A DNA stretch of 64,000 nucleotides from a virus. The position numbers were made by a program, and so were the translations under genes. The notes below the pieces were generated by a model. The model was not told the origin of the DNA, did not search any database, and was given only the letters and a program-made list of their open reading frames with translations. Shown here one piece after another: positions 26,799 through 45,705 of this stretch; position 1 is the stretch's first letter, and every line of letters begins with the position of its first letter. Where the stretch lies: the IMG/VR virus record IMGVR_UViG_3300009093_000009; one strand, 5' to 3'.

Positions 26799-27194
26799 TT
26801 GAGAATTAACGCAAAAGACCCTGGCGCACATATGTTCATGCCTTTCGTCAACTGCATACGGATACCGCTATGCTTTGAAGTCGATACGGATGCCGGGATC
26901 GCTATTGTTGACCCTGAAGTTATCGAAATCGATGCGCGACTTAAGGAATTTGTCTTCAGTAAGCCCTTTGAGATTTCGGGGCGCAATATACGGCTAGTTT
27001 TGAAGGGCGAGATCGAAATTCGCAAGGAAGACGATAACGGAGACTGGACCATCGTGGTGACGGAAGACGAATTCCATAATTTATGTGTGCTTACCGAAGG
27101 TAATAAGTATCCTACGCGCGTTATTCGCGGCCTAAAAACTCCAACTGTCACCATTCACGGGACTTATCGCGGAGGGAATATCGACATTGGGTAG
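26799..27194 (+). CDS. Hypothetical protein (AT-richer segment)
   Basis: TTG start behind an AAGGGA RBS. An alternative ATG at 26832 lacks an RBS. Confidence 0.5.
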   Translation: MRINAKDPGAHMFMPFVNCIRIPLCFEVDTDAGIAIVDPEVIEIDARLKEFVFSKPFEISGRNIRLVLKGEIEIRKEDDNGDWTIVVTEDEFHNLCVLTEGNKYPTRVIRGLKTPTVTIHGTYRGGNIDIG

Positions 27195-29107: not shown

Positions 29108-29456
29108 AAAAACACTGAATGATGCCGCGCTATACATCGTGGATCATCTTTCGGAAAACGATGCCGCGACCATCATAGGGAGCCACGAAGCCATCGGCAA
29201 GTTTGAAGATGCCATCAAAAGCTGCTTTGACGTACCCGTTGGGATATTCCCTGGCGATGGCAGAAATATGCTTCCAGGCTTCCCGCGTGTTATGTTTCGA
29301 CCGATGGACGAAGATCACTGTCACGGCATTGCCAGCAAGGTAGTTATCCTTCTTGATGCTGTCACTGATGACTTCATTAACGCAGTCGTGCGACCGATAG
29401 TCGCTAAGTGGGAGAAGACCTATAACTGTAAAGGTCGGATAATCATGGTGCGCTAG
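29094..29456 (+). CDS. Hypothetical protein
   Basis: Start at MKMVRK. Lies between the terminase subunits. Confidence 0.5.
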   Translation: MKMVRKTLNDAALYIVDHLSENDAATIIGSHEAIGKFEDAIKSCFDVPVGIFPGDGRNMLPGFPRVMFRPMDEDHCHGIASKVVILLDAVTDDFINAVVRPIVAKWEKTYNCKGRIIMVR

Positions 29457-31045: not shown

Positions 31046-32588
31046 CCCCGCCAATCCCTCGAATATCATCCCGATCCTGGATAGGAATGGGAGGCCGTAC
31101 GACCGTGGATCGGATGAAACCGGCACGCTCCTCGATACGCCCAACAGGGATCGCATTCTGTCGGGCGATCCATTCGGGCTGCTGCAATGGGCGCACGCCA
31201 TGCCAGGGTTCTCGCACGATGCTTTAATCTCTCATCGCGGGTGGGAAGTGGCCGATAATATGTTCATCAATTCGGCATACCAGGCTCTCTCCAGCGTCAA
31301 GGAGAATTCGATCATCTACAAGCCGTGGGCGGTCAATAGCCGCATCCAGAGCAAGGAGAAGGATACCGAAGGGCTATATCAGCTTGCCATCGAAGCGGCG
31401 GACTTCTGCCGCCACCTGATGGAGAATATCGCGGTAGCCGACACGAAGCAGGCCACGGACCCGCGCGAGATCATCATGGGCATGATAAAGGCCATGCACT
31501 ACGGCGCGTCCATGCAGGAAATAAATACCAAATGGTTCAAGGGCGGCAAGTACGATGGTCTATGCGGCATCAGCGATCTCGCCTTCAAGCAGGCCAAAAA
31601 CGTCGGATACTGGCTGCATCGTAAAACCAACCGCATCCTATCGGTGAATATCTTTAACGGCGGCAAATTCGAGAGCCAGGACGATGTGGCAGAAAATGGT
31701 CAGGTGGCCGATGGACCGTGGGATTGGGACTTGCCTCTGGAGAAGTTTCTATACTACTGCTACCGTAAGAAAGACGGCCTGCCCTATGGCTGGGGAGATT
31801 TCAGGCCCGCGCATCCGCATACGGTCGTCCTAGACCTTCTAATGAAGCTATGGGTCATCCTGGTGGAGAAATTCGCGGGAGGCTTCCTGAAGGGCTTTTA
31901 CAGCAATCCCGCTGACGCCAGACTACTTCTCGACGCGATGGACAAGCTGCGGCGCGGGGCAGCCGTGGCGCTTCCAGAGGGACTGGATATCACCCTTGAA
32001 CAGTTATCGGGCAATGGCATCGAAAGCGTCTCCACCTGTATCACCTACAACAAGCTGCAACTGGCGGAACTGCTTCTGGGCCAGAGCCTTACCACATCGC
32101 AGGGCGACCGTGGCAGCTACGCCCACGCGCATGTCCATCAGGACACCCAGGAGTTCTTCCTGGCCTACGTGCGCCGCGACATCGAGTTCCAGTGGGAGCA
32201 GCAGATATTCAGGCGCTTCCTGAACTTCAACTATGGCGACAAGTACGATGCCGTCATCCCGCGCCTATCCCTTGGCGTCTGGAACTGGCAGGAGATCAAC
32301 CTGATCGGAGACGCCGTTAAGAAGTTTGTCGATATGGGCGCGGTGGGCGCGAAGGCTCCCTTCGTGCGCGAACTGCCAGGCTTCCCGGCCTACGATAAGG
32401 ACGTGGAAGGAGATCTGACCATTGAGCCTGATCGCGAGCGCGTTACCATCGACAAAAGCGATCCAGGCAGCACGGGTCCATCGAAGCAGCGCCCAGGCAC
32501 GTCAGCGGCCCGCCCGATGAAGCTATCGGACGTACACCCGGATGATCGCATCCTGGTCATTTCCGACCCCGATATGCTCGACGCCTAA
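31026..32588 (+). CDS. Portal protein
   Basis: 520 aa, follows terL with a short overlap, precedes the prohead protease. Central region resembles Mu gp29/DUF935-type portals. Confidence 0.7.
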   Translation: MTSFPLSPANPSNIIPILDRNGRPYDRGSDETGTLLDTPNRDRILSGDPFGLLQWAHAMPGFSHDALISHRGWEVADNMFINSAYQALSSVKENSIIYKPWAVNSRIQSKEKDTEGLYQLAIEAADFCRHLMENIAVADTKQATDPREIIMGMIKAMHYGASMQEINTKWFKGGKYDGLCGISDLAFKQAKNVGYWLHRKTNRILSVNIFNGGKFESQDDVAENGQVADGPWDWDLPLEKFLYYCYRKKDGLPYGWGDFRPAHPHTVVLDLLMKLWVILVEKFAGGFLKGFYSNPADARLLLDAMDKLRRGAAVALPEGLDITLEQLSGNGIESVSTCITYNKLQLAELLLGQSLTTSQGDRGSYAHAHVHQDTQEFFLAYVRRDIEFQWEQQIFRRFLNFNYGDKYDAVIPRLSLGVWNWQEINLIGDAVKKFVDMGAVGAKAPFVRELPGFPAYDKDVEGDLTIEPDRERVTIDKSDPGSTGPSKQRPGTSAARPMKLSDVHPDDRILVISDPDMLDA

Positions 32589-33283: not shown

Positions 33284-33345
33284 GCCGGTTTCGTTTGAAA
33301 GTGTGACCCGTGGGTCGCATTTTAGCGAAACCGGCTTTTTCTTTT
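33284..33345 (+). terminator. Intrinsic-terminator-like nested hairpin containing the palindromic motif
   Basis: GCCGGTTTCG ... (TGTGACCCGTGGGTCGCA) ... CGAAACCGGC followed by TTTTTCTTTT. Confidence 0.6.
33302..33319. repeat. Palindromic motif copy 6
   Basis: TGTGACCCGTGGGTCGCA, nested in the terminator-like hairpin, 41 nt upstream of the protease start. Confidence 0.95.
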
Positions 33346-33360
33346 GACCTGGAGCCATCG

Positions 33361-34725
33361 ATGATCCCATTCCTGGGAGCATGGGCCTGCGATCAACAGC
33401 GCACCGACATACTAACCGCTAGTATCTCCCTGCTCTCCGCAACGGAAATACTGGCGATACAGGCGTCCTGGCTCGATGACGACAAAGAGCCTGACTACGC
33501 TGTCGATGCTGGCGTGGCGACCATCGCTCTCAAAGGCCCGCTTACCAAGGACGGCGGCTGGTGGACGCGCTACATGGGAGGCACATCGAGCACATCCTTC
33601 GCGGAAGCCATCGATGCAGCCAGCAGCGATCCATCGGTCAAGGCCATCCTGATAGACTGTGACTGCCCTGGCGGGGAAGTGCTCGGAACTCCCGCAGCCG
33701 CCGAAGCCGTGGCTCGATGTCAGAAGCCTGTCCTGGCCTACGTATCCGGGATGTGCTGCTCAGGCGCGTACTGGATATGCTCGCAGGCCGATGGCATCTA
33801 CGGCAGGCCCGAAAGCCAGTCGGGAAACATCGGATGCTACACCTACCTGACCGATACCAGCGAAATGTATAAGCGCATCGGGATCAAGGTTGAAGTCTTC
33901 CGCAGCGGCGACCACAAAGCCGTAGGAATAGCCGGTACTAAAATCACCGATGCACAGCGCACCGAAATCCAGAAGCGCATCGATGGGATTGCCGATCTTT
34001 TTCGCGCAGCCGTGGCATCGGGCCGTAGGATGAAGCCTGAGAAAGTGTCAGCAGTCAGCGATGGCCGCTCCTTTCTTGGCGCACAAGCAGTTTCGGAAGG
34101 GCTTCTCGATGGCGTCGCGGGACACGATGCCGTCATGTGCGCCCTTCAGAACCATGTCCCAGGATCGAAGAACAAGATACGGGTTGAAGCACGGCAAGAC
34201 CCGGAAGGAACATCCATGCGAAAGCCAAATGAAATTTGGGACGAATTGTCGGCATCGATGAAGGGATTCCTCGGCGGCGCTCAGGCTGCAACCGATACCA
34301 GAACCGCTCCATCAGGCGGCTCCAGTGTTACCAGCGATCCTGAGAAAGCACAGCTAGAAGCCAACCTTCAGCGCATCACGAAGGAGCGGGACGAAGCGAT
34401 GGCGTCTGTCGCTGCCCACGATGCCGCCCTCCAGTCTGCACGCGCCACGGAGAACCGCAACGCGGTCATGGCGCTTGTCACTGCTGGCAAGGTCAAGCCT
34501 GGCGAAGTCGATGCGGAGTGCGCTCTTCGCGCCAAGTCTCCAGAAGTCTACGATGCGACCATGAGCCGAGCGGTCGCCAGTGTTCTCACGCCTACTACCG
34601 ATAAGATCAGCGGCGAAGAAGCCAGCGATAAGGCAGCCGCTGCAAATGCTACCGCCGAGCAGAAGTTCCTCGATGCCGCTGCCGCGCACGTCAAGGCCAC
34701 CTATGGCCTACAGGAGACGAAATAA
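33361..34725 (+). CDS. S49 (SppA/ClpP-fold) prohead protease with C-terminal scaffold-like region
   Basis: KAILIDCDCPGGEV, MCCSGAYWICSQAD and GDHKAVG match S49 peptidase blocks. Ala/Glu-rich helical C-terminus. Start at MIPFLG downstream of the motif. Confidence 0.85.
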   Translation: MIPFLGAWACDQQRTDILTASISLLSATEILAIQASWLDDDKEPDYAVDAGVATIALKGPLTKDGGWWTRYMGGTSSTSFAEAIDAASSDPSVKAILIDCDCPGGEVLGTPAAAEAVARCQKPVLAYVSGMCCSGAYWICSQADGIYGRPESQSGNIGCYTYLTDTSEMYKRIGIKVEVFRSGDHKAVGIAGTKITDAQRTEIQKRIDGIADLFRAAVASGRRMKPEKVSAVSDGRSFLGAQAVSEGLLDGVAGHDAVMCALQNHVPGSKNKIRVEARQDPEGTSMRKPNEIWDELSASMKGFLGGAQAATDTRTAPSGGSSVTSDPEKAQLEANLQRITKERDEAMASVAAHDAALQSARATENRNAVMALVTAGKVKPGEVDAECALRAKSPEVYDATMSRAVASVLTPTTDKISGEEASDKAAAANATAEQKFLDAAAAHVKATYGLQETK

Positions 34726-35495: not shown

Positions 35496-36695
35496 GTGGG
35501 ACAGCTACAGCTTCTCAGCAATGTACACCTGAAAAGGATTTGGCCCGACCTGTATTTTCCACTTCTTCAGAAGATGGATTTTCGATGGTCGAACCCGCAG
35601 GGCGGTCGCATCCCGACCGTACCGGCGTCTTGGGGCGAAATTCAGGCCCGTGGCAATAGCCGCATCCAGATAGCGCCTATCATCGGTCGCGGCCAGAGCG
35701 CGCCGATCAAGACGCCCAATGATGTTCTGCGCCTGGAGCAGAGCACGATCCCCAAGATCAAGCATGGCGTGCTGCTCGATGAAACGACGCTTCGCGATCT
35801 GGAAGCCGTCTCCGATGCTTTTGGCGGCGTTCCCTCGATGGACAACGAACTCGTCCAGAACTTCGTGAACTACGAAAGCAGCAAGCTGAAGGAACTGGCC
35901 CTGGGATGTACCGCTCGGCGCGAGCATATGACCATCGGGATGCTGCTCGATACCTATACCTATGCCAATGAGCACGGGATGCAGTTCTCGATGACCTGGG
36001 GAGCGCCCTCGGACAGCAAGCTGACGGTAGGCACGGCCTGGGGCGATGGAACCATCGGAATGTCGCACGCGGCAACCGGGGCGAAAGTCATCGATGACAT
36101 CCAGACGTTCCTGACCAACCTTTCGGTGACTTACGGCAAGGACTATGACCGCGCATCGATGTCTCGGCAGACCGCGCTCTACATGATCGGCACCGATCAG
36201 TTCCGCGCCATGGCCCCGATCTTCTGGAGCCAGGCGGGACTTGCTCCCACGGTCACGCAACTTCCTTTCAATAACTTCTCCGCGATGGTTCCCATCCTGG
36301 AGAAAATCCTGGGACTGTCCATCGAAATCGATGACCGGCAGGTTCAGCAGGAGCAGATCGATATGAGCCTGTGGAACGCGCCTCCGAATGCGCCCGCCGC
36401 TGGACAGTACATCCGGTACCAGCCCGCCAATGTAGTCATCTTCACGAACAGCCAGGATGACGGCAGCGCAATGGCATGGGATGTCGCCAATCTCCCGGTC
36501 GCGGAGAGCTATCCGGGCCGCGTACCCGGCATGATCGGCGGACAGCCCACGGCAGGCGGCTCGCGCGGTCCGTTCCAGTATGCCTCCGCGCTCTCGTTAT
36601 CGGGCGATCCGGTCGGCACCGTGCTGTTCTCCGTCGAGGAGAGCCTGCCCCGCAAGGTCGATCTGCTCTGCGCCGCCTCGATGACCGTATGGTAA
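35496..36695 (+). CDS. Major capsid protein (lambda gpE-like)
   Basis: 399 aa, GTG start behind AGGAGAAA. Synteny after the S49 protease, followed by a strong hairpin. General resemblance to the Phage_cap_E family. Confidence 0.7.
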   Translation: MGQLQLLSNVHLKRIWPDLYFPLLQKMDFRWSNPQGGRIPTVPASWGEIQARGNSRIQIAPIIGRGQSAPIKTPNDVLRLEQSTIPKIKHGVLLDETTLRDLEAVSDAFGGVPSMDNELVQNFVNYESSKLKELALGCTARREHMTIGMLLDTYTYANEHGMQFSMTWGAPSDSKLTVGTAWGDGTIGMSHAATGAKVIDDIQTFLTNLSVTYGKDYDRASMSRQTALYMIGTDQFRAMAPIFWSQAGLAPTVTQLPFNNFSAMVPILEKILGLSIEIDDRQVQQEQIDMSLWNAPPNAPAAGQYIRYQPANVVIFTNSQDDGSAMAWDVANLPVAESYPGRVPGMIGGQPTAGGSRGPFQYASALSLSGDPVGTVLFSVEESLPRKVDLLCAASMTVW

Positions 36696-36698
36696 ATC

Positions 36699-36726
36699 GC
36701 TAAGGGTACGGAAATGTACCCTTAGC
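36699..36726 (+). terminator. 11-bp hairpin after the capsid gene
   Basis: GCTAAGGGTAC ggaaat GTACCCTTAGC starts 4 nt after the stop codon. No T-tract, so it may be a stabiliser or a partial terminator. Confidence 0.45.
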
Positions 36727-36747
36727 TCCAGATAAGGAGCACTTGGA

Positions 36748-37200
36748 ATGGGACAGTACAAAAACGGAAAACTAACGCGCGAAGGCATGAAGGCCGTCAT
36801 CGATGGCGGTGGCGTGGTGATGCACGAAGGCAATATCCTTCGCCATCACCACGAACTTCCGCTGCCGGAGAGCATGACGGATAGCAAAGTGGAACGCGCG
36901 CGGGTAAAGGCGGAACTGCTGGCGGAGCACGATGCCCTTATAAAGCGGATCACCGATATTAGCGGCGATGCGGAAGCAGAGGAAAGCGCCGAGGATAACT
37001 CCGATACCGAAGGAGGCCAGGCGGACGCGGATGGCGATGGCAGCATCGACCTGGACGAAGACGGCGATCCCAAGAAGTACCAGGTTCTTAAATCGCTGGC
37101 CGTGGAAAAGGGCTATAACCAGGGAGGCCATCCCTCCCGCATCGATCTGAAGGCATACCTGAAGCAGCAGAAAGACATGGGCCAAAAGGTAATCGCCTAA
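36748..37200 (+). CDS. Hypothetical protein with acidic central region
   Basis: 150-aa ORF. Confidence 0.55.
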   Translation: MGQYKNGKLTREGMKAVIDGGGVVMHEGNILRHHHELPLPESMTDSKVERARVKAELLAEHDALIKRITDISGDAEAEESAEDNSDTEGGQADADGDGSIDLDEDGDPKKYQVLKSLAVEKGYNQGGHPSRIDLKAYLKQQKDMGQKVIA

Positions 37201-37220
37201 ACGCTGAAAGGCAATGAACG

Positions 37221-37730
37221 ATGACTGCATCCGGATGTGCTGTTCGTCGCTCAGACAGGACGATACCTATGTTCAATCTCGCTCCTGCCCAGATCGTCGC
37301 CGTTATTGTGTGTGTTTGTGGGGCTATCGGCGCGGGGGTGGGAGCCTGGATAACCGCCCGGTACTCCCTGCTCTCGAAGCTGATGGAAACCATGAAGGGC
37401 TTCGCGGATACCCAGGCATCGGACGCGCACTACCTTCGCGATAAGGTCATCGGCATAGAAGCGGTCCAGCACACGCTTCAGACAGAACTCAATGCGGTTA
37501 ACGTTAAGCTGGTGGAGACGCAGATACAGCTTATCGACACAAAGAATAAGCTGACCATCGTGGAAGCCGAAAACGCACAGCTTCGCTTGCAGAATGGCAT
37601 CCAGGCCGATGAAATCGAAGCCCTGAAGAAAGAGAATAGGCGGCTCTCTTCGGAGCACACGGAAATGAAAACGGCCATGAGCCGCCTTCAGTCGGTCGAT
37701 GGAATCGACAAAAACGGGCTGATCGTGTGA
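37221..37730 (+). CDS. N-terminally membrane-anchored coiled-coil protein (Rz/i-spanin-like architecture)
   Basis: TM segment IVAVIVCVCGAIGAGVGAWI followed by about 120 aa of heptad-like sequence. The start may be the ATG at 37269. Confidence 0.5.
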   Translation: MTASGCAVRRSDRTIPMFNLAPAQIVAVIVCVCGAIGAGVGAWITARYSLLSKLMETMKGFADTQASDAHYLRDKVIGIEAVQHTLQTELNAVNVKLVETQIQLIDTKNKLTIVEAENAQLRLQNGIQADEIEALKKENRRLSSEHTEMKTAMSRLQSVDGIDKNGLIV

Positions 37731-37743
37731 CCCATGGGTCACA
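37726..37743. repeat. Palindromic motif copy 7
   Basis: TGTGACCCATGGGTCACA (perfect). Overlaps the stop of the 37221-37730 gene, 14 nt upstream of the start at 37758. Confidence 0.95.
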
Positions 37744-37757
37744 GTGGAGAAATTGAA

Positions 37758-37976
37758 ATGAAGCCACTCTTCGTGCTTATTGCATGGGCTGTTAAATTTC
37801 GCGCTTTTGGATTTACCTTTGGAAGCTATAGCGATCACAAAGTCGTTGCGCTTCCAGCCATATTCCAGGTTGCGTCCGCGCTTACCAACGCGCATATGGC
37901 TTATAGCTATAACGACCATGGCGTGATCGTATCCGTATCGCTTACCGATGATCCTACCGCCGCCGTGACTGTCTAG
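37758..37976 (+). CDS. Small protein with hydrophobic N-terminus
   Basis: Start at MKPLFVLIAW behind motif + GGAGAAA RBS. Confidence 0.45.
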   Translation: MKPLFVLIAWAVKFRAFGFTFGSYSDHKVVALPAIFQVASALTNAHMAYSYNDHGVIVSVSLTDDPTAAVTV

Positions 37977-37985
37977 GAGAGCCTG

Positions 37986-38561
37986 ATGGCACGCTGGATA
38001 CAGATCGTCAATCTGAAGTTCGATCCTTTGGCCTTCAGGGCATACGCGAAGTCTCTGAGCGTGGAGAAAAGCGCCTGGAAGCCAAAGGGCATCGTGCTGC
38101 ATAATACCGCCGATCCCGATCTTGCGGCCTGGGCGAAGCACTCCTGGCAGGACAATCTGGAAATTCTGGTGGAGTACTATCGCGACACGATGAAATGGCA
38201 CGCGGGACCGCATCTGTTCGTGGCCCCGGAAGGCATCTGCTGCTTCACTCCGATAGCCACTCCCGGCGTTCACAGCCCATCGTTTAATAACACGCATCTT
38301 GGCGTGGAAATGGTCGGCAACTACGTCCTGCCTAAAGCCTCCGATGACTTCCAGAACGGCAAAGGCGGCATCGTGCATCTGAATGCGATCAGCGCGGTCG
38401 CCACGCTCTGCGAAGTCTTCCATCTTGACAGCGCATCGTTAAAGCTGCATCGCGAAGACCCAAAGACGACCCACGACTGCCCAGGACACCAGGTTGACAA
38501 GACAGCATTCATCCAGGCGGTTCATAACGAACTCTTGAAACGGAAGCCAGTAGTCGCATGA
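37986..38561 (+). CDS. N-acetylmuramoyl-L-alanine amidase (Amidase_2/PGRP-type endolysin)
   Basis: GIVLHNTA..., GPHLFV..., THLGVEMVGNY and HREDPKTTHDCPG are typical of T7-lysozyme-type amidases. Confidence 0.85.
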   Translation: MARWIQIVNLKFDPLAFRAYAKSLSVEKSAWKPKGIVLHNTADPDLAAWAKHSWQDNLEILVEYYRDTMKWHAGPHLFVAPEGICCFTPIATPGVHSPSFNNTHLGVEMVGNYVLPKASDDFQNGKGGIVHLNAISAVATLCEVFHLDSASLKLHREDPKTTHDCPGHQVDKTAFIQAVHNELLKRKPVVA

Positions 38562-38869
38562 GCCAGAACACCATCGCTCAGATATTCGCCAGCCGCGCCA
38601 TACGCATGCTGCTATCCTCGATAGTGGCGGGAGCCTTGGCGGGCTTCATAGCCCAGGATGGCGGCGCGAATATCCACGCGGCCTTGACGGTGGCGGCGAT
38701 TACGTCCCTGAAGGATATTCACGCCTACCTGAGCACAAGCCCATTCCAGCCAATCGATAAGCCTAAAGATGCTGAGAAGGCTGCTGTAGCGCCAGCAATC
38801 GCCATCGTGGATGCAGCAGACAAGGATGTACCCGATGTCACGGATAACGCCCGCCCACGCGCAAATTGA
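38558..38869 (+). CDS. Holin-like membrane protein
   Basis: ATGA overlap with the amidase gene. Hydrophobic segments RMLLSSIVAGALAGFIA and AALTVAAITSL. Charged C-terminus. Confidence 0.45.
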   Translation: MSQNTIAQIFASRAIRMLLSSIVAGALAGFIAQDGGANIHAALTVAAITSLKDIHAYLSTSPFQPIDKPKDAEKAAVAPAIAIVDAADKDVPDVTDNARPRAN

Positions 38870-39278
38870 AACCCTGCGGCTGCAATACAGCTACCCAGCG
38901 CATGAGCCACGGGAAGAAGACCCGCATTACCATGTTTTCAACGAGACGCGGCGCAGGATGGAGAAATCTGGCCTGCTGAAGTGCTGGATAGGCAATGCCG
39001 ACTGCTGCGGCAATGTCGAACTCCATCACGATAAGGTGGAGTTCTCCCTGGCTAACATCGTGGATGTGGATCACTTCAGGAAATTATTCCCTGAATTCGG
39101 CATCGACGACGATCAGGAATTTCAGGACTGGATCGAAGGCGAGGGCAATCTTCTGGCTCTCTGTGAAATGCACCATCGCGGCCTTCTTGGCATCCATTCC
39201 ATTCACATGCCCGCATGGTGCATTCAGCGATATATGAAGGCAGGCGTCTCGCCGCCCGAGCGCGTGATAAGGATTTAG
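38826..39278 (+). CDS. HNH endonuclease
   Basis: CCGNVELHHDKVEFSLAN...LLALCEMHHRG fits the HNH pattern. Confidence 0.7.
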   Translation: MYPMSRITPAHAQIETLRLQYSYPAHEPREEDPHYHVFNETRRRMEKSGLLKCWIGNADCCGNVELHHDKVEFSLANIVDVDHFRKLFPEFGIDDDQEFQDWIEGEGNLLALCEMHHRGLLGIHSIHMPAWCIQRYMKAGVSPPERVIRI

Positions 39279-39354
39279 CGTGAATATCACACAGTTCTAT
39301 CGCAGCAAGTTTGGCTTCCCGAATCAGGATAAGCCCCTATGGGCGATCAGACTG

Positions 39355-40977
39355 ATGCTTCGATGGTTTGGCCTTATAGCCGCCATCGTGCTTCTTGGCT
39401 CGTCAGGAACGGCGCAGCACGCCAGGACCGGCATCGCGGGCGCTACTCACCTGCGCCCTGGCCTTCCGGATGGCTCCGTGCATATCCGCAGCATGACCGC
39501 CGCCATTCCCTCGGGCGCAACTTACTATATCGCCACGACGGGAAATGACAGCACGGGAACCGGGTCGTCCGTAAGTCCCTGGGCCACGCCTAACCATGCT
39601 TACGCCTCCATGGCTGCTGGCGATACCCTGATTATCAAAAATGGAACGTACCATCAGACCAACCTGTGTACGCGCTTCGATGGGCAGCGGCCTCCAGCGG
39701 GAACGTCTGTCGCCTATACCACCGTGCAGGCGGAAACCGATGGCAGCGTCATCTTCGATGGAGACAACACCACTTCCGACCTGTCCGTCGATAACACTCC
39801 CGCGTCGGCTCTAAACTACATTACTTTTCGCGGCATCGTCTTTCTGCACCAGACAGGCGGCGTGGGCCTCTATGCCTGCGACCATATCAAGTTCTTGAAG
39901 TGCGGCATTGAAGGTAATGGGTCGGGAAACACGGCATCTTTCTCGCTATCCACCGGATGCACCTACTGTCTTTTTGAGGATTGCTATGCCTGGGGCGCGG
40001 ATCGCTACAAATTCCTGATCTATCATTCCGATCATGATATTCTAAGGCGCTGCATCGTACGTCACGACCGTGCTTTTATCGGCGTGGGCGGCAATCCCAC
40101 TGCATCGTTTACCTGCTATTCCAGCGATCATGTCTGGTTTCAGAATTGCATTGGCGTCGATATGTCGCCGGTCGTTTTCTTCAATGGAGCGAATGAATAC
40201 TCCGGCGAATTTTATGCCCCCACTCCCTCGGGATGGGTCAGCAGCTTCTATATGGATAGCTGTATTTCCCTGCACTCCACGATGCAGTTTTGCAGCCTTG
40301 GCAACGATCAAGGCAATCCCACGCCAGACATCAATATTCGGAACTGCGTAGGATGGGACATCCTGGAAGGCATGTGGATCAGGACCAACTGCTCCATCGA
40401 TAAATGCACCTTCGGGGCGTTCCGTGGCCCCGCGCTGCAAACCGTCGATGAAGGGCTGGAGTATGAAACCGGCACGAACAATATCCCGCCGACGATTACA
40501 AATTCCATCGTGCGCGATATTCCAAGCCCAGGTATCGCGCTTTCGAACTTCCTGACGGAAGACTACAACGATCTATTTAACAACGCGACAGTCCGATCCG
40601 GCACGCCGACCGGAGCGCACACCATATCCACAAATCCATCGCTCACCTATATCGCCAGGATCGAGGCAGGCAATGCCACGCTTCACGCCGCTGGCAGCAG
40701 CGGCAGCGACATCGGCGCGAATATTATCAACCAGTTCGGTACTTCCGGAACGGTTTGGGGCGATGCGGGATATAACACGCAGACGGCCTCCCTGCTCTGG
40801 CCGCTGCCATCCGAGGCTAAAGCCGCCTATTGGATGAACACCTACAGCTACACGGGTACGGAGGGAACGATTACTGGCAATCGAGGCTTTGCCTCTTCCG
40901 CAAGTATCGCGGCCCATGCATCGAACCCTCTGACCTACTACATCTGGAATTATCTTGGCAACGGAAGCCCGTACTGA
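39355..40977 (+). CDS. Secreted right-handed beta-helix (pectate-lyase-fold) protein
   Basis: Sec-type signal MLRWFGLIAAIVLLGSSGTAQHA. YYIATTGNDSTGTGSSVSPWATPNHAYASMAAGDTLIIKNGTY is the typical beta-helix/DUF1565 N-terminal cap. Confidence 0.7.
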   Translation: MLRWFGLIAAIVLLGSSGTAQHARTGIAGATHLRPGLPDGSVHIRSMTAAIPSGATYYIATTGNDSTGTGSSVSPWATPNHAYASMAAGDTLIIKNGTYHQTNLCTRFDGQRPPAGTSVAYTTVQAETDGSVIFDGDNTTSDLSVDNTPASALNYITFRGIVFLHQTGGVGLYACDHIKFLKCGIEGNGSGNTASFSLSTGCTYCLFEDCYAWGADRYKFLIYHSDHDILRRCIVRHDRAFIGVGGNPTASFTCYSSDHVWFQNCIGVDMSPVVFFNGANEYSGEFYAPTPSGWVSSFYMDSCISLHSTMQFCSLGNDQGNPTPDINIRNCVGWDILEGMWIRTNCSIDKCTFGAFRGPALQTVDEGLEYETGTNNIPPTITNSIVRDIPSPGIALSNFLTEDYNDLFNNATVRSGTPTGAHTISTNPSLTYIARIEAGNATLHAAGSSGSDIGANIINQFGTSGTVWGDAGYNTQTASLLWPLPSEAKAAYWMNTYSYTGTEGTITGNRGFASSASIAAHASNPLTYYIWNYLGNGSPY

Positions 40978-40987
40978 GGAACCATCG

Positions 40988-43513
40988 ATGAAGCGATTTT
41001 TAAGATTGTGGCTGCTGGTTGTAGCTTCCATCGTGATGAGCCTGGGCAGCGCCCCCGGCCTTGCCGCCATTACGCTCGTAACGCACGCCAATGCTACCGG
41101 AAATATAAATACAGTCACCAGCGCATCGGCCAATACCACGGGCGCTAACCTGATTGTAATAAGCATTTCCTGGTATATCGGCGGCACGGCCCCTGTTCTT
41201 ACCGATAATAAATCGAACACCTGGACGGCCCTTACTGAGCACGATGCCAACATTATATCGTCGGTCCGCATGTACTACTGCGTCGGAGGCACGGTAGGGA
41301 CTGGGCACACCTTTACCGCAACGGGAACCGGGAGCGCGCCCGCTCTCTGCATGACCTGCTATAGCGGCGCAGCCAGTTCCCCGCTCGATACTCAGAATGG
41401 CGCGGGTACATCGGCATCAGGCGCAACTCTCAATACTGGCAGCGTCACTCCCGCAGCCAATGGCTCCTTAATTGTCTCCGGTTTATGTTGGGATACATCG
41501 GGCCAGACAGCGGCTAATAGCCTGGGTTGGTCTATCTCCGATCAGAGCGATGGCGTCAGCGGTGTAAGCATGGGCGCATCGATGGCCTACCTGATCCAGA
41601 CGACTGCCTCCGCGGTTAATCTGCAATGGTCCCTTACCACGGGCGGGAACTTGGCCGCGAACGTGGCGGTGTTTAAGGCCGCCACTACAGGATGGGTGCT
41701 CGCTTACGATAGCGGCGATATGTCGCTGCTAACCAGCGGCGATCCGCTTCCTACCTATGGCGGACTTTCTCTCACCGAAACGCTCAATACACTGGCTCCT
41801 ACCAAACAGTACGTCATCAACGATGCGGGGGACGGTCTTGGCGTGGGCTTGCGGCGCACTGCCGATGGCGGGCAGATGGAGGCGAACCGCCTGGTGCTCG
41901 ATGTGGGCGGAACGGCGCACCGGCAGGCCAAGATCGAAATTACCTGGAAGGCATCCGCGCTCTCATCCACGGCCACTCTTCCCAACTGGACGGCGGTTTG
42001 GGGCATATCCAATAGCGGCGCTTTTGGCTCCGGTCATATGTATCAGGGCGGCTATGTCGCATCGTCCACAGGCCCTCTATCGCAGGCGGAGTGGGGCGCT
42101 TTTGCCGATACGGCTGCCGGGACCACGGGCAGCGGAGCCGAAAGCTATACCTTAAACGCCTCCGCGCAGACTGATTTCCAGATCAATAACAGCGGCGCGT
42201 TTGGGATGACCACCACCTTCAATGGCAATCCCCACGCCGATACCATCTCGGATGGCCTGGTGCCGACTACGGGCCATGGCGCTATCTTGATTACGGGATC
42301 ATCGGGGGCGTCGCTTAGCCATCTGGTGATAACCCGGCTGAAAATATCCTATGATGACTACATAGACACGACGCTTCGATTAACGGCGGCTGCGGGCTAC
42401 CCCACCGTGACCGGCACGCATATCGCCGTGGCTGGACCCACGAAGACCGGAGGCGTGGGCGCGAGCGTATCCTATGCCTGGTACTATACGACCACCTACA
42501 ACGGCACTGGAACGGCGATCAGCGGCCAGAGCGGGACGATCACCAACGCGGCGACGGCGGTTCCAGACCTGGCCTGGGATGTCCCCAGTGGGCAGCAGAA
42601 CATCCCGCTCTGGCTCTACTGCACGCTCTCCGATGGAACGACCACCTACGATGCGATAGGCCCGTGGGATACCACGCACTTTGCAATCGGCGATACCGGA
42701 AGCTACATTCCCGCCGCCGCGCCCGTGCCTGCCGTGCCTGACAATACCGCCCTGGGGGCGCTCTTCGACTGGAGCAAGGTGCCATCAGGCAAGAAGGTGA
42801 TCTTCGCGCAGATTGGCGACAGTATCACCTTTAATTCGGCATCGGCCTTCACTTCCGACTTTGCCGCGCTCGATGGCGCTAGCAAGCATCTGGCAATCGA
42901 TGCGGGCCATAGCAGCAGCTTTATCGCCGACTGGCTCCCGACTGCGGCAGCGACAGGGACAGGGCAGAGCATCCTTTCGGGAGAGAGCACTCGCAACAAC
43001 TATAACGGCCTGAAGCACTACATCGATGCAAATAAATCCACGGGCGATAAGATCGTGATCTCGATCATGCTTGGCACCAACAATGGCGGCAACAGCACGG
43101 CGGAAATGGCGGACTTCGACACACTCATCGCCGCGCTGCAAAGCGATTACGCCGACTACAACGGAGTGGGCACAGGCTCGCCGCCGATAGTCATCCACGA
43201 TCAGATATATCGCTGGCAGACGGTAAACAGCAATCAGCTAAACCAGTTCCAGCATGAGACGCACTACCATGGCATCGTGGATGCCTCCTCCAGCGATAAA
43301 CTGATCCCTGGCAGCAGGCTCACGCGCCTGTTCTTCATGGCGCACGCGGAACTCTCCGACCTGTTCCTGCATCCCTCCATTTCCACGGGCGCGGATGACT
43401 GGGCGCGGTTCGTGATGGCGCAGCAGCTACAGGCGGCAGTAAGCCTTTATATCACCACCGTGCAGCGCAGGCATACGAGAAGCCCCCGCACCGGAACGCG
43501 CACGTCTAACTAG
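40988..43513 (+). CDS. Large secreted protein with C-terminal SGNH/GDSL hydrolase domain
   Basis: Signal peptide MKRFLRLWLLVVASIVMSLGSAPGLA. SGNH blocks IFAQIGDSITFN (I), IMLGTNNG (III), DLFLHPS (V). Confidence 0.7.
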   Translation: MKRFLRLWLLVVASIVMSLGSAPGLAAITLVTHANATGNINTVTSASANTTGANLIVISISWYIGGTAPVLTDNKSNTWTALTEHDANIISSVRMYYCVGGTVGTGHTFTATGTGSAPALCMTCYSGAASSPLDTQNGAGTSASGATLNTGSVTPAANGSLIVSGLCWDTSGQTAANSLGWSISDQSDGVSGVSMGASMAYLIQTTASAVNLQWSLTTGGNLAANVAVFKAATTGWVLAYDSGDMSLLTSGDPLPTYGGLSLTETLNTLAPTKQYVINDAGDGLGVGLRRTADGGQMEANRLVLDVGGTAHRQAKIEITWKASALSSTATLPNWTAVWGISNSGAFGSGHMYQGGYVASSTGPLSQAEWGAFADTAAGTTGSGAESYTLNASAQTDFQINNSGAFGMTTTFNGNPHADTISDGLVPTTGHGAILITGSSGASLSHLVITRLKISYDDYIDTTLRLTAAAGYPTVTGTHIAVAGPTKTGGVGASVSYAWYYTTTYNGTGTAISGQSGTITNAATAVPDLAWDVPSGQQNIPLWLYCTLSDGTTTYDAIGPWDTTHFAIGDTGSYIPAAAPVPAVPDNTALGALFDWSKVPSGKKVIFAQIGDSITFNSASAFTSDFAALDGASKHLAIDAGHSSSFIADWLPTAAATGTGQSILSGESTRNNYNGLKHYIDANKSTGDKIVISIMLGTNNGGNSTAEMADFDTLIAALQSDYADYNGVGTGSPPIVIHDQIYRWQTVNSNQLNQFQHETHYHGIVDASSSDKLIPGSRLTRLFFMAHAELSDLFLHPSISTGADDWARFVMAQQLQAAVSLYITTVQRRHTRSPRTGTRTSN

Positions 43514-43528
43514 GAGCACACCCCCACG

Positions 43529-44818
43529 ATGAAAAGACTTTTGATATTTTTCGCGCTTCTGGCGATGGCGGTCACATCCCAGGCGCAGGTTACTCTAAAG
43601 CAGAGCGCAACCGCTCGAAAGCTGGTCTTCCTGATGATCGACAGCGCCGATCACATCAGTGGGAAGACCGGACTTACCGTCACGGTAACGCTTTCCAAGA
43701 ATGGCGCGGCCTTTGCCTCCCCGGCGGGAACCGTATCTGAAATCGGGAGCGGCTGGTACGCCCTGACCGCTACCTCGGCGGATACCGGGACGCTTGGAAG
43801 CCTGGTGCTCCATGCCACCGCGACGGGAGCCGATGTCTCCGACCACGAATACAACGTCGTCGCGCCCGATCCCGATAGCGCGACGGTGCTTCTCAACGGC
43901 AATGGAGACGCGCTGCTTGCGTCCCTGGCCGTCGAGTACGGCACGGCCCAGGCAGGGACATCCACGACCCTCCAGCTTCGCGCGGGCGCTCCTTCCTACG
44001 ACCTCTCAGGCCAGTACATCTTCCTGCAATCGGGAACGGGAGCCAAGGCCAGCGTCGCCACTCTGATAACGGCCTACAATACCACCACGAAGACCGCTAC
44101 CGTAGCCGCGTGGCCCAATGGCACGCCCGACAGCACAACGGTCTATCAGATCAGGCCGCAGATGGCCTTCCTGGTGCAAGAGCATACCGAGAACGCCGCC
44201 GATGTGATGGATGCGCTGAATGCCACGAACACCCTCTCTCCCTCGATAGGCAGCATCTTCACCCTGCTTTCCGGCGTTGCAGCGCCGTGGTCCAGCCTGA
44301 CATCCAGCTACACCACGGCGGGAACCTTCGGCAAGCTGCTTAACGATAATCTGAACGCGACCATCAGCAGCCGCATGGCGACATTTACTCTTCCCACCAA
44401 CTTCTCTGCCCTGGCGATCACCAGTGGTGGCGCGGTAACGGCATCGGGCATTACCGGCATCCGGCCTTACATGGTCTACATCGATAACCAGCCTGCGGTC
44501 AAGGCCAGCCTGACGTTCCAGGCAAACGATGTGGGCGTGGTAGTTCAGGAGACGCTTCGCTATCCGAATGGCACTCCCATCGACCTGACAGGCAAGACCG
44601 TAAACTTCCAGCTTGTGCCGATAACAGGCGGCTCTCCGGTAGTGAACTCCGCAGCCACCATTGCATTTGCGACGGGCGGCGTGGCATACTATACACTGAC
44701 AGGTACGGATTTGGCGACAGTGGGAACCTACTATCGCCGGTGGAAAGTAACCGATGGGTCAGGAAATATCGTGACCTATCCGAACACGAACAGCCTGACT
44801 GTCGTGATCCACAACTAA
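43529..44818 (+). CDS. Secreted protein with Ig-like/fibre-like domains
   Basis: Signal peptide MKRLLIFFALLAMAVTSQA. N-terminal ...SGKTGLTVTVTLSKNGAAF...GWYALTATSADT... and a C-terminal beta-rich domain resemble phage fibre modules. Confidence 0.6.
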   Translation: MKRLLIFFALLAMAVTSQAQVTLKQSATARKLVFLMIDSADHISGKTGLTVTVTLSKNGAAFASPAGTVSEIGSGWYALTATSADTGTLGSLVLHATATGADVSDHEYNVVAPDPDSATVLLNGNGDALLASLAVEYGTAQAGTSTTLQLRAGAPSYDLSGQYIFLQSGTGAKASVATLITAYNTTTKTATVAAWPNGTPDSTTVYQIRPQMAFLVQEHTENAADVMDALNATNTLSPSIGSIFTLLSGVAAPWSSLTSSYTTAGTFGKLLNDNLNATISSRMATFTLPTNFSALAITSGGAVTASGITGIRPYMVYIDNQPAVKASLTFQANDVGVVVQETLRYPNGTPIDLTGKTVNFQLVPITGGSPVVNSAATIAFATGGVAYYTLTGTDLATVGTYYRRWKVTDGSGNIVTYPNTNSLTVVIHN

Positions 44819-44827
44819 TCGGCGGAA

Positions 44828-44845
44828 TGCGACCCAAGGGTCACA
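44828..44845. repeat. Palindromic motif copy 8
   Basis: TGCGACCCAAGGGTCACA, 18 nt upstream of the start at 44864. Confidence 0.9.
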
Positions 44846-44863: not shown

Positions 44864-45310
44864 ATGAGCACGTTCGATGATCTCTCGACGGACGGTGGAA
44901 AACTCCGCTGGTTCTTAAACGACCGGGATAGCGAAGCTCCTTTCTTCTCCGATCCCGATCTGGAAGGGCTTCGCTTTGAAGCGAACTCTTTTGTAGTTCC
45001 ACTTACCGATCTTCCAGCCGCCGCGCTTTACTACGCGGCGCACATCGGATGGCTTATCAAGGCGGGACTTCGTGCCGATGAAAGCAAGAAGCAGAAGATC
45101 GTCGTTCTGATGAAGGACACGCACGTCACCTATCTCGATGCCGTGGCCCAGGCGCACCAATACTTGATGCTGTCCAAGAGAGCATCCGCAAGCAGTCTGG
45201 ATGGCGGTATCGGCGTGGCCGTACCCACGCTCGATACGCATACGCCAAGGCTCGATACCGACTGCAACCCGTTTATTCGACATCGTGACCTTCTGGAAGA
45301 AATCTTCTGA
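44864..45310 (+). CDS. Putative head-tail joining protein
   Basis: 148-aa ORF behind motif + GGAGAAG RBS. First of the genes preceding the tail module. Confidence 0.5.
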   Translation: MSTFDDLSTDGGKLRWFLNDRDSEAPFFSDPDLEGLRFEANSFVVPLTDLPAAALYYAAHIGWLIKAGLRADESKKQKIVVLMKDTHVTYLDAVAQAHQYLMLSKRASASSLDGGIGVAVPTLDTHTPRLDTDCNPFIRHRDLLEEIF

Positions 45311-45705
45311 TGGCGAAGAGCAACGATGGCGCGGAGGCCAGGAAAGACTTTAATGCGGCCCTGGCCGAAGATGGTCAGACTATCGTGCGCGTGCGCCGTG
45401 GCCGAACCGATAGTAAGGGCAACCGTCATCCAGAAGAGCGCATCCCGCAGCGGGTCTTGATAGATACGGTCAGGCTGCAATCCGCCACGACCATATCGGA
45501 CCAGGGAGCAAGCAACGCCGCCAACAGCGGGATGAACATCATCTATATGTCTCCCGATGATGGAGAGCCATCGGAGCAGGACGTTATCGAGCGCGGACTG
45601 TTTCGGTACGGCCTCTCCGATCTCGACTTCCTGCCGGTGAATGACATCGTGGTGTATTGGTTTGCAACGATGGTTCGCACCGAAGACATCGAGGCCGATA
45701 CGTAA
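45310..45705 (+). CDS. Putative head-tail joining protein
   Basis: 131-aa ORF abutting its neighbours. Confidence 0.5.
   Translation: MAKSNDGAEARKDFNAALAEDGQTIVRVRRGRTDSKGNRHPEERIPQRVLIDTVRLQSATTISDQGASNAANSGMNIIYMSPDDGEPSEQDVIERGLFRYGLSDLDFLPVNDIVVYWFATMVRTEDIEADT

Follow-up and report, generated by a model that had tools for sequence, protein, structure and literature searches.

Here we examine a locus which raises the question of where, and on what, three large proteins of an uncultured tailed phage (IMGVR_UViG_3300009093_000009) act, when all three begin with a predicted Sec-type signal sequence and their genes lie outside the tail module, between the capsid gene and the neck genes. The window is the whole stretch of 64,000 nucleotides that was analysed, and the block of interest (37221-44845) contains eight genes, seven of which are found between two copies of a palindrome (Table 1). 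The ORFs are at the positions given in the initial annotation, which had counted nine genes between the palindromes. The three proteins (p565, p841 and p429) share a motif-delimited unit with an amidase endolysin and a holin-like ORF, in agreement with the earlier view that the set is attached to the lysis cassette. The tail module of the window has large distal proteins of its own (769 and 999 aa), and no paralogues of p565, p841 and p429 were found elsewhere in the 64-kb window. The reading that we favour, and to which we would give about an even chance of being right, is that of a late-expressed, Sec-exported set acting on envelope glycans.

Table 1. Features of the block and the two palindrome copies that delimit the unit
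Feature	Position	Strand	Description
Rz-like i-spanin candidate	37221..37730	+	Belongs to the capsid-gene unit, ahead of the first palindrome; phrog_739, E=4e-6
Palindrome copy GTGACCCATGGGTCAC	37727..37742	.	16 nt; shares bases with the stop codon of the Rz-like gene; 3 nt before GGAGA, then ATG 37758
72-aa ORF	37758..37976	+	Opens the unit; also annotated in the public record
Endolysin candidate, N-acetylmuramoyl-L-alanine amidase	37986..38561	+	PF01510 Amidase_2, E=3.5e-7
Holin-like 103-aa ORF, candidate	38558..38869	+	One strong hydrophobic segment, residues 14-32; directly after the endolysin
HNH endonuclease	38835..39278	+	phrog_8048, E=1.2e-12; 147 aa in the public gene call
p565	39280..40977	+	Hydrophobic segment, ~30-aa linker, Pel9A-like right-handed beta-helix from residue 80
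p841	40988..43513	+	Predicted signal peptide 1-26; beta-sandwich 27-232; 236-460 not modelled; beta domain 464-556; candidate SGNH esterase 586-825
p429	43529..44818	+	Predicted signal peptide 1-19; Ig-like 21-111 and 136-209; helical region with AGTFGKLL...ISSR; BppU_N-like C-terminus
Palindrome copy GCGACCCAAGGGTCAC	44829..44844	.	Followed by ACTTTTTATC, GGAGA and ATG 44864 of the first neck-region gene

The palindromes do bracket the block, as had been noticed, but they are not specific to it, the motif (aat-GYGACCCRYGGGTCRC-att) being present in 10 copies across the window against 0.11 expected. Every copy with a visible downstream gene start stands upstream of a Shine-Dalgarno sequence and a start codon, at a distance of no more than about 10 nt for most copies; for the two copies nested inside larger terminator-like hairpins it is about 30-45 nt. 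The palindrome marks expression units genome-wide and not this block specifically; that the copies are mobile-element ends or an insertion scar was ruled out, given their number throughout the genome and their place upstream of ribosome-binding sites. We infer that the seven genes between the motif copies would be co-transcribed late, as one expression unit. The defence-system reading of the block was dropped, no PADLOC model having matched at E<=0.01 among the 10 proteins searched.

At the head of the block, the Rz-like, membrane-anchored coiled-coil protein is borne out by its match to the 'Rz-like spanin' family and by a single TM segment at residues 25-43, ahead of a coiled coil (in the public record the gene is called from ATG 37269, with 153 aa); no o-spanin partner with a lipobox was found among the ORFs in 36700-39400. 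The NCBIfam model 'phage_LysB', which describes the P2 LysB spanin and not the mycobacteriophage esterase, matched this protein only (E=0.096). The assignment of the endolysin to Amidase_2 also holds (31.1 bits, above the 26-bit cut-off), with weak matches to PHROG endolysin and amidase families, as does that of the HNH nuclease; the amidase itself has no signal peptide. The holin-like protein retains its strong hydrophobic segment but finds no match in Pfam, PHROG or NCBIfam, and the description of the 72-aa ORF as a small hydrophobic protein had to be given up, this ORF having no segment of TM length and no family match in Pfam or PHROG profiles.

The right-handed beta-helix attributed to the first large protein was confirmed by a precomputed match on an identical protein to PF22842 (Pel9A-like_beta_helix), and the activity of p565 may be that of a lyase or a hydrolase. 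Its homologues (30-55% identity) span residues 80-565, and the 17 that were aligned over at least 80% of the query share the N-terminal motif ATYY...TG.DS...GDT. Most homologues are cellular and have a Sec signal peptide cut directly before ATYY, with a few phage copies carrying no signal. The 14 Cys of p565 fit extracytoplasmic folding. As for the second protein, said to end in an SGNH esterase, we identified SGNH blocks I (GDSITFNS), III (LGTNNGG) and V (SDLFLHPS) in p841, the latter with a D-x3-H spacing versus the canonical D-x2-H; five relatives of its C-terminal part (P0195-P0199) have GDS/GTN/DGxHP motifs, block V being SD(G/R)xHP. Foldseek searches with the alpha/beta C-terminus recovered the CE2 esterase 4xvh (E=6e-4, prob 0.97) and the SGNH domains of PatB (7tlv) and OafA (6se1), and residues 603-739 aligned with the GDSL protein P0050 in BLAST (E=4e-4), but no Pfam SGNH model matched p841 at E<=0.1. 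The C-terminus of p841 is hence presented as a candidate SGNH-type esterase on the strength of its motifs and of a medium-confidence AlphaFold model (mean pLDDT of 10-residue blocks between 40 and 81 over residues 586-825). A XepA-like fold for p841 was dropped, with Foldseek probabilities of 0.09-0.25 to XepA 6i56. The third protein is Ig/fibre-like as proposed: the structure prediction of p429 contains two confident Ig-like sandwiches and a fibre-like tail with a BppU_N-like match at its C-terminus, and no enzymatic domain. PDB sequence searches with p565, p841 and p429 gave marginal matches only.

Signal peptides were called using a crude home-made heuristic of n-, h- and c-regions, the Sec/SPase I criteria being a positive n-region, about 10-15 hydrophobic residues close to the start of the protein as h-region, and small side chains at -3 and -1. 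The heuristic flagged 3 of the 84 non-overlapping ORFs of the window, exactly the adjacent genes of p565, p841 and p429, and the N-termini quoted in the initial annotation as signal peptides are present. In p841 the predicted cleavage separates ...APGLA from A, and in p429 ...TSQA from Q. The start of p565 is more likely GTG 39280, with AAGGA 7 nt upstream; from this codon the hydrophobic segment (MLRWFGLIAAIVLLGSSGTAQHA) occupies residues 26-48 behind an n-region of 25-28 aa, and the heuristic is satisfied (cleavage between ...SGTA and QHA) only from an internal Met. Because 25 residues precede the hydrophobic segment and the -3 residue at the cleavage site proposed earlier is poor, p565 may have a signal anchor, or else a signal peptide with a long n-region. 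No Cys, as a lipobox (L-[AS]-[GA]-C) would require at the end of the h-region, was found near the cleavage regions of the three proteins. A lipobox-like stretch, LMAC, was seen by eye in a homologue on contig L006.

Comparison with homologues indicates that these signal peptides are discrete additions, because the same conserved domains of p841 and p429 begin at residue 2-5 in proteins with no signal peptide, the gap between the hydrophobic segment and the domain start of the homologues being nil in p841 and p429 and about 30 aa in p565. Homologues of the p841 N-domain mostly have no signal peptide, and most begin with 'MAIALVAH...'. The p429 N-domain starts at residue 3-5 in about 90% of its homologues and is found without signal peptide in 78 of the 87 locus ORFs and 17 of the 19 genomic copies, even when these are read back to the upstream stop codon. 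Judging from the sequences, the signal peptides predicted in p841 and p429 are add-ons to domains with which phage fibre-like proteins, lacking a signal, usually begin. This, together with the secretion of the cellular relatives of p565, is in line with the initial impression that the set looks exported, unlike the usual virion depolymerases. A signal peptide is found in about 10% of p429-like genes. In a distance tree of their domains the window falls in a signal-bearing clade, and there are at least five other signal-bearing lineages; the scatter of these lineages and the Fitch count (7 gain or loss changes over 179 domains) point to repeated switching, the predicted signal peptide having been gained or lost at least five times. 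Moreover, same-strand neighbours carry a signal in 13 of 91 cases near signal-bearing p429-like genes versus 5 of 582 near signal-less ones (odds ratio 19, p=1.1e-8). It is the cluster as a whole that has signal peptides, and their presence on the neighbouring enzymes too points to a common place of action outside the cytoplasm.

On at least seven other phage-like contigs there are signal-bearing clusters drawn from the same domain families, an esterase or a beta-helix protein often being among their products. Signal-bearing copies adjoin head or neck genes in five contigs, and in three of those five they lie in the capsid-neck interval. In L028, a major head protein (phrog_267) is followed by a signal-bearing CBM4_9/CE2_N/GDSL esterase, a signal-bearing 477-aa protein, a signal-bearing p429-like protein and then small unannotated genes at the neck position. 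The order is Phage_cap_E, signal-bearing p429-like, Minor_tail_Z in L029, and two signal-bearing neighbours, signal-bearing p429-like, head-tail connector in L038. Amid the Mu-type head genes of L027 there are a signal-bearing p429-like protein and a signal-bearing DUF5123 protein, a domain that accompanies pectate-lyase-type beta-helix proteins. L003 has a holin, a probable CHAP-type endolysin (from motifs only), an SGNH protein (with an N-terminal segment hydrophobic by eye that the heuristic did not flag), a signal-bearing p429-like protein, a Pel9A protein and a p841N-like protein; L005 and L006 provide further signal-bearing examples. Only in the window, L003 and L006 is the set next to lysis genes, and signal-less copies are located in tail modules or at the end of the late genes nearest the terminase (L030, L031, L012 and L019). 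A full-text literature search, not exhaustive, found no published description of signal-bearing fibre or depolymerase clusters. The arrangement thus appears undescribed, as had been claimed, but it is not a one-off.

The origin of the block and the host were approached from several sides. Megablast of 12 kb against GenBank phages found no relatives, scans of IMG/VR and JGI metagenomes with the capsid protein found no close relatives of the phage, and tblastn of p841 and of the p429 N-domain against 50,697 GenBank phage records gave no match. A scan with the palindrome motif returned 11 unrelated stretches, none with proteins in common with the window. GC and GC3 of the block match the rest of the genome, and its tetranucleotide distance from the genome ranks second among 39 windows of the same length; base composition does not clearly point to a recent arrival. 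Nothing in these results shows that the block was inserted, as had been proposed. No tRNA genes were found in the window. The only clue to the host is that Planctomycetota, which are likely among the hosts of such clusters, account for 11 of the 19 copies of the p429 N-domain found in genomes.

Placing the set among known systems requires considering first the virion tailspike and fibre depolymerases, for which we take the P22 tailspike and the O-antigen deacetylase gp63.1 of phage G7C as examples. These resemble p565, p841 and p429 in catalytic folds and in modular build (a conserved N-module with a variable enzymatic or binding part), and Foldseek with p841 also recovers the cyanopodophage Pan3 tailspike (9vyh). 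Unlike them, the proteins described here have a Sec-type signal each and are encoded outside the tail module, in one unit with an endolysin; they do not fit the description of virion receptor-binding proteins as signal-less products of tail-module genes. The Sec-exported or SAR endolysins, such as Lys44 of Oenococcus phage fOg44 and Lyz of phage P1, are likewise late phage proteins, brought to the envelope by the Sec machinery of the host no later than the moment of lysis, as predicted here. They are, however, peptidoglycan hydrolases, whereas here the amidase has no signal and the signal-bearing proteins are glycan lyase-/esterase-like and Ig-like. The analogy drawn earlier with mycobacteriophage LysB survives at the level of function, LysB being an accessory esterase of the lysis cassette directed against an outer envelope layer, a role analogous to that proposed for p841. 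It does not extend to the protein itself: LysB is a cutinase-like alpha/beta-hydrolase with GxSxG and without signal peptide, specific to mycolata, its substrate being the mycolyl-arabinogalactan ester, whereas p841 has an SGNH-type GDS motif and a candidate SGNH fold as well as a predicted signal peptide. Soluble non-virion depolymerases include PghP of Bacillus phage PhiNIT1 and Dpo of Erwinia phage PhiEa1h, whose gene is beside those of holin and lysozyme. Both are free enzymes that degrade a host exopolymer, and the PhiEa1h gene is lysis-linked as is the set here, but they are released by lysis and are not known to carry a Sec signal, and we know of no multi-gene signal-bearing set among soluble phage depolymerases. 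Finally, XepA, which is not a lysin, is encoded together with a holin and an amidase in the lytic cassette of the prophage PBSX; it is exported and extracytoplasmic in location (PMC6834076), and is listed as non-classically secreted (PMC1266369). XepA has neither a classical signal peptide nor an enzyme domain, unlike the signal-bearing enzyme set of the window.

Taking these results together, p565, p841 and p429 are built from the usual tail-fibre and tailspike modules (Ig-like N-domain, CBM-like beta-sandwich, beta-helix lyase or hydrolase and candidate SGNH esterase), each having acquired a predicted Sec-type signal peptide. We infer that, with these signals, they would be translocated by the host Sec system late in infection and cleaved, instead of entering virion assembly in the cytoplasm. 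Acting from the periplasm or the cell surface, they would bind an envelope glycan and either cleave it or remove its ester groups; the glycan could be a capsule, an EPS, an LPS-like polymer or an O-acetylated wall polymer. Their most likely purpose would be to strip, from the dying cell and its debris, a polymer that hinders the escape of the progeny or serves as phage receptor, a receptor-destroying or release function alongside the holin-endolysin pathway.

The alternative that survives best, albeit rather unlikely in our view, is that the three proteins are virion appendages (head or neck fibres, or side spikes), whose N-termini are not used for export or which mature in the periplasm and bind the particle after the envelope is breached. 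Proteins with homologous signal-less N-domains are indeed encoded inside tail modules (L001 and L030) or, in L031, where the late genes end and tail-fibre genes are usually found; there the Ig-like N-domain and Pel9A are fused in one signal-less protein. The N-domain fold of p841 (AlphaFold/Foldseek) matches Mycobacterium phage proteins annotated as 'minor tail protein', the Foldseek matches of p429, with its BppU_N-like C-terminus, include the TP901-1 baseplate (4v96), and the place beside head and neck genes in five contigs is typical of head/neck appendage genes as well. Virion attachment would also be allowed by the fact that cleavage would restore in p841 and p429 the N-terminus of their signal-less relatives, some of which belong to tail modules. 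Sec export is nonetheless incompatible with cytoplasmic assembly, we know of no precedent for attachment to virions after lysis, and the signals on the neighbouring enzymes point to a common site outside the cytoplasm. In addition, the p841 N-domain is found elsewhere as tandem arrays of 2-4 copies and as a fusion partner of many CAZyme domains (fucosidase, cellulase, SASA), which resembles the behaviour of a carbohydrate-binding module more than that of a virion anchor.

It is unlikely that the proteins are factors of lysogenic conversion or superinfection exclusion, exported by a prophage and altering or hiding the surface receptor (through de-O-acetylation or glycan trimming, for example) so that related phages are blocked. 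Several signal-bearing clusters are on integrase-carrying contigs, at the late-operon end where morons usually sit (L003 and L005), the p429-like family is found on large genome contigs and complete chromosomes, mostly of Planctomycetota and presumably borne by prophages, and the best structural matches of p841 include SGNH domains structurally close to enzymes that modify acetyl groups of O-antigen or peptidoglycan. The genes of the window, in contrast, are inside the late structural region and in one unit with the endolysin, with no sigma-70-like promoter found directly upstream of the genes of p565, p841 and p429 and no integrase among the ten largest early-strand ORFs.

A more speculative proposal, which we hold to be decidedly unlikely, is that signal-bearing fibre-derived proteins constitute recurrent, convergent phage 'exo-appendages', folded in the periplasm (where disulfides are possible), which would join the particle after the breach of the envelope or be exported as receptor-destroying proteins in the manner of influenza neuraminidase. 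In such a scenario, joining after the breach would amount to an extracytoplasmic step of virion assembly, and the proteins would be associated with the head or neck, which would account for the conserved place of their genes beside head and neck genes.

It is highly improbable that these are auxiliary metabolic genes for secreted polysaccharide-degrading enzymes that feed the host during infection: although the full-length proteins most closely related to p565 are secreted and are encoded on contigs of cellular MAGs (Elusimicrobiota, Syntrophaceae and Verrucomicrobia) and the p841 N-domain is elsewhere fused to the CAZyme domains named above, p429 has no enzymatic domain, the set is coupled with lysis genes, and the p429 N-domain (and that of p841, in the few contexts checked) occurs in phage- or prophage-like neighbourhoods. 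There is likewise very little chance that the signal peptides are false positives due to chance hydrophobic N-termini or wrong start codons, since, for all that the heuristic is home-made and the p565 start ambiguous, chance is very unlikely to flag three adjacent genes when the background is about 1%, GAGGAA precedes the ATG start of p841 and AGGAG that of p429, and independent homologues have similar signal peptides at the same place.

Returning to the late-expressed, Sec-exported set acting on envelope glycans, what is new here is that the signals are add-ons, that the signal-bearing minority of p429-like genes has arisen through repeated gain or loss, and that signals cluster among neighbouring genes. 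Phage depolymerases and fibres are treated as virion parts assembled in the cytoplasm, and free enzyme is thought to be a surplus released at lysis. If our reading is correct, the secretion of envelope-glycan-active proteins directed by the phage before or at lysis would be a separate strategy, and the signal peptide would distinguish soluble from virion-bound depolymerases in annotation and mining. It would also bear on how phages avoid being trapped on debris and on how their progeny escape from thick or sticky envelopes, including those of Planctomycetota, whose phage biology is hardly known.

A heuristic for Sec-type signal peptides (positively charged n-region; mean Kyte-Doolittle hydropathy >= 2.3 over 10 residues beginning within 12 residues; small residues at -3/-1) was run on the 84 non-overlapping ORFs of the window and flagged only p565, p841 and p429, exactly the three large proteins to which the initial annotation had attributed such signals. 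No lipobox was found in their N-termini. The ATG codons of p841 and p429 are preceded by the Shine-Dalgarno-like GAGGAA and AGGAG, respectively. For p565 the more plausible start is the GTG at 39280, which has AAGGA 7 nt upstream and is also the start in the public gene call; it leaves 25 residues ahead of the hydrophobic segment, which may therefore be a signal anchor.

Judged from their relatives, p565, p841 and p429 are built of fibre and spike modules, each protein with an added predicted export signal. p565 carries PF22842 (Pel9A-like beta-helix), and its homologues, with 30-55% identity across residues 80-565, are found chiefly on cellular MAG contigs (Elusimicrobiota, Syntrophaceae, Verrucomicrobia), where a classic signal peptide ends immediately before a conserved ATYY...TG.DS motif; the homologues P0052, P0054 and P0073 are signal-less and have the N-terminus MATYY. 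Numerous relatives exist for just one part of p841, residues 27-232, a beta-sandwich modelled confidently (pLDDT > 90). This N-domain begins at residue 2 (MAIALVAH...) in most homologues, is often present in 2-4 tandem copies, is fused to SGNH, fucosidase, cellulase, SASA or beta-helix domains, and matches in fold many uncharacterised phage proteins as well as Mycobacterium phage proteins annotated as 'minor tail protein'. For the remainder of p841, a set of 1.84 billion representative proteins yielded only five relatives, all five with SGNH motifs and none with a signal; structural matches of its modelled alpha/beta C-terminus are CE2 esterase and the PatB and OafA SGNH domains. In p429, two confidently modelled Ig-like sandwiches are accompanied by a helical segment and a C-terminus resembling BppU_N. 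Hundreds of proteins have an N-terminus 50-76% identical to its residues 23-121, and in about 90% of them the domain starts at residue 3-5; of 19 genomic copies, 11 are in Planctomycetota and 17 are signal-less even with the frame extended to the preceding stop codon. Residues 262-305 of p429 (window about 44312-44443) hold a motif, AGTFGKLL...LNATISSR..., with 67-85% identity over 33-45 residues to the p429-like proteins of the comparison loci L028 and L029, which are far less similar to p429 elsewhere outside the N-domain; the motif is a candidate for a conserved element of the fibre shaft or of oligomerisation.

Signal-less p429-like copies are located within tail modules or else at the terminase-proximal end of the late gene block: one inside a myovirus tail module (L030), and others just upstream of a probable terminase gene, assigned from N-terminal sequence only, in L012 and L019. 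A signal-less protein with a p841-like N-domain is likewise encoded in a podovirus-like tail module (L001). The signal-less P0118 (L031, 10001-11887), encoded by the last late gene, fuses a p429-type Ig-like N-domain to a Pel9A-like beta-helix, a build as expected of a tailspike; it is the single-chain tailspike counterpart of modules that the window encodes as two proteins, p429 and p565. Signal-bearing genes occur in other fetched loci. In L028, a scaffold gene and a major head protein gene (phrog_267, E=4e-65 for the latter) are followed by three of them, encoding a 787-aa CBM4_9/CE2_N/GDSL esterase, a 477-aa protein and a p429-like protein, and then by small genes at the neck position; in L029 a signal-bearing p429-like gene stands between a lambda-type capsid gene and Minor_tail_Z; in L027 signal-bearing DUF5123 and p429-like proteins are encoded amid Mu-type head genes, DUF5123 being a companion of pectate-lyase-type beta-helix proteins; and in L038 two signal-bearing neighbours and a giant signal-bearing p429-like gene precede a head-tail connector. 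Where the late operon ends, L005 and L006 each carry a run of two or three signal-bearing genes. The order in L003 is holin, probable CHAP-type endolysin (Cys/His motifs by eye), an SGNH protein whose hydrophobic N-terminal segment was seen by eye and was not flagged by the heuristic, a signal-bearing p429-like protein, a signal-less Pel9A protein 55% identical to p565, and a protein with a p841-like N-domain.

Two further observations concern these loci. The public call of P0077 (L006, 9932-11926) begins at an internal Met, and the extended ORF has the N-terminus MRTIRSIIVCLFLTLMACGSQAQ, which resembles a lipoprotein signal and includes an LMAC lipobox; database gene calls therefore underestimate signal-peptide frequency in its family. 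The 999-aa distal tail protein of the window (N-terminus MSNVFTEDFDGVTAP...) is homologous to an 881-aa protein of L005 (7347-9992), in which a signal peptide precedes a motif common to both (…AWGQTTITTQNFDGVTAP), and their N-module is a further fibre-type module known in signal-bearing and in signal-less form.

In all fetched loci, 9 of 87 p429-like ORFs are signal-bearing. Among same-strand ORFs >= 100 aa within 6 kb of a p429-like gene, signal peptides were present in 13 of 91 near signal-bearing copies versus 5 of 582 near signal-less ones (Fisher odds ratio 19, p=1.1e-8), some signal-bearing loci having been picked for the focal gene's signal peptide, with the state of the neighbours not a selection criterion. 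A distance tree of 179 distinct p429-type N-domains placed the window inside a signal-bearing clade with P0084, L005, P0096, P0109, P0115 and L006. Outside this clade the tree shows five or more independent lineages with signals, and the Fitch count requires at least 7 changes.

The window is approximately an entire 64-kb phage-like metagenomic contig (a protein identical to p841 is encoded on a 64,161-bp ENA contig), with late genes on the + strand from about 25 kb and, farther along them, a long tail module containing a 1343-aa tape-measure-like protein. The capsid-to-neck interval encodes the very acidic 150-aa protein, for which a family search gave no match, the Rz-like protein, a 72-aa ORF, the Amidase_2 protein, the 103-aa ORF, the HNH nuclease and the three large proteins.

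Features of the window and their coordinates
Feature	Position	Strand	Remarks
ParB-like N-terminal domain fused to DNA methyltransferase	27187-28581	+	phrog_498, E=1.5e-57; just upstream of terminase region
Terminase	29456-31045	+	late genes
Mu-type portal	31026-32588	+	late genes
S49 protease	33361-34725	+	late genes
Decoration-like protein		+	late genes
Major capsid protein	35496-36695	+	phrog_29
Acidic protein, 150 aa	36748-37200	+	directly 3' of capsid gene; D/E-rich centre
Rz-like protein	37221/37269-37730	+	alternative starts
Amidase_2 protein		+	family match; after 72-aa ORF
Holin-like ORF, 103 aa		+	single strong hydrophobic segment; before HNH nuclease
HNH endonuclease	38835-39278	+	phrog_8048
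p565	39280-40977	+	
p841	40988-43513	+	
p429	43529-44818	+	
Head-closure	45310-45705	+	weak match
Two-TM protein, 71 aa	50238-50453	-	precomputed Imm_superinfect (PF14373) match
Distal tail protein, 999 aa	57896-60895	+	
Palindrome copies	2792, 8399, 14424, 18420, 25340, 33303, 37727, 44829, 48393, 61826		

The HNH nuclease, between the holin-like ORF and the first putative exported enzyme and distant from the terminase genes, may be either a homing nuclease or an accessory to packaging, and defence-system models (PADLOC) matched no gene between 37221 and 44845. The 71-aa protein, whose gene runs on the opposite strand amid the tail genes, immediately before the tape-measure gene, had no PADLOC match and is a candidate moron-like superinfection-immunity protein. 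A relative of the ParB-like/methyltransferase fusion is encoded by the planctomycete locus L009.

The 16-nt palindrome GYGACCCRYGGGTCRC, usually flanked by aat...att, has 10 copies in the window where 0.11 would be expected, all of them intergenic. Wherever the start of the next gene can be seen, the palindrome precedes its Shine-Dalgarno sequence and start codon, on either strand according to the gene, and the gap to the Shine-Dalgarno is about 10 nt or less at most copies. The copies at 33303 and 48393 each form the tip of a larger, terminator-like hairpin with a T-run behind it, and stand about 30-45 nt from the Shine-Dalgarno. By this position it marks expression units genome-wide, and it is likely to serve the phage throughout its genome as an operator, a processing site or a 5'-leader hairpin or element; with copies throughout the genome, there is no sign that they are ends of an inserted element. 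GC and GC3 of the block resemble those of the remaining genome, although by tetranucleotide distance to the whole genome it stands 2nd among 39 windows of equal length. The arrangement reported in the initial annotation is real but needs correction: besides the start of p565, its nine genes between 37221 and 44845 are eight, and the palindrome said to bracket them is genome-wide, with two consecutive copies delimiting a unit (37758-44818) that runs from the 72-aa ORF to p429 and leaves the Rz-like gene in the preceding one.

That the signal state is recurrent, repeatedly evolved and cluster-wide argues for a shared extracytoplasmic site of action for p565, p841 and p429 over three accidental hydrophobic N-termini, and late Sec-dependent export would be the most economical mechanism. 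Late in infection, Sec would export a glycan-binding protein, a beta-helix lyase or hydrolase and an acetyl- or acyl-esterase, and the set would act on an envelope polymer alongside, or just ahead of, holin-endolysin lysis. Such activity could serve progeny release, receptor destruction on debris, competitor exclusion or the de-O-acetylation of wall polymers. In the chief competing reading the three proteins are appendages still ending up on particles, since cleavage would restore a mature N-terminus identical to that of the signal-less homologues and five signal-bearing copies adjoin head or neck genes (three of them between capsid and neck genes). The tail module of the window encodes its own large distal proteins and no paralogues of the three were found elsewhere in the window, so that a need for them as receptor-binding proteins is not obvious.

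The reading as exported enzymes is partly supported, by the added signals and the recurrent clusters, but the likeness to LysB is one of location: LysB has a fold unlike the putative SGNH domain of p841 and lacks a signal peptide, and the window set falls outside its family. PBSX XepA is likewise similar in location, and membership of its family was rejected (fold match probability <= 0.25). Use of the host Sec system is common to Sec-exported or SAR endolysins and, as predicted, to the three proteins, which would work in the manner of soluble depolymerase/esterase sets. A non-exhaustive literature search found no description of signal-bearing fibre or depolymerase clusters. Of greater value than this one locus are the signal peptides of fibre-derived genes, recurrent, clustered and acquired convergently, and open to direct testing.
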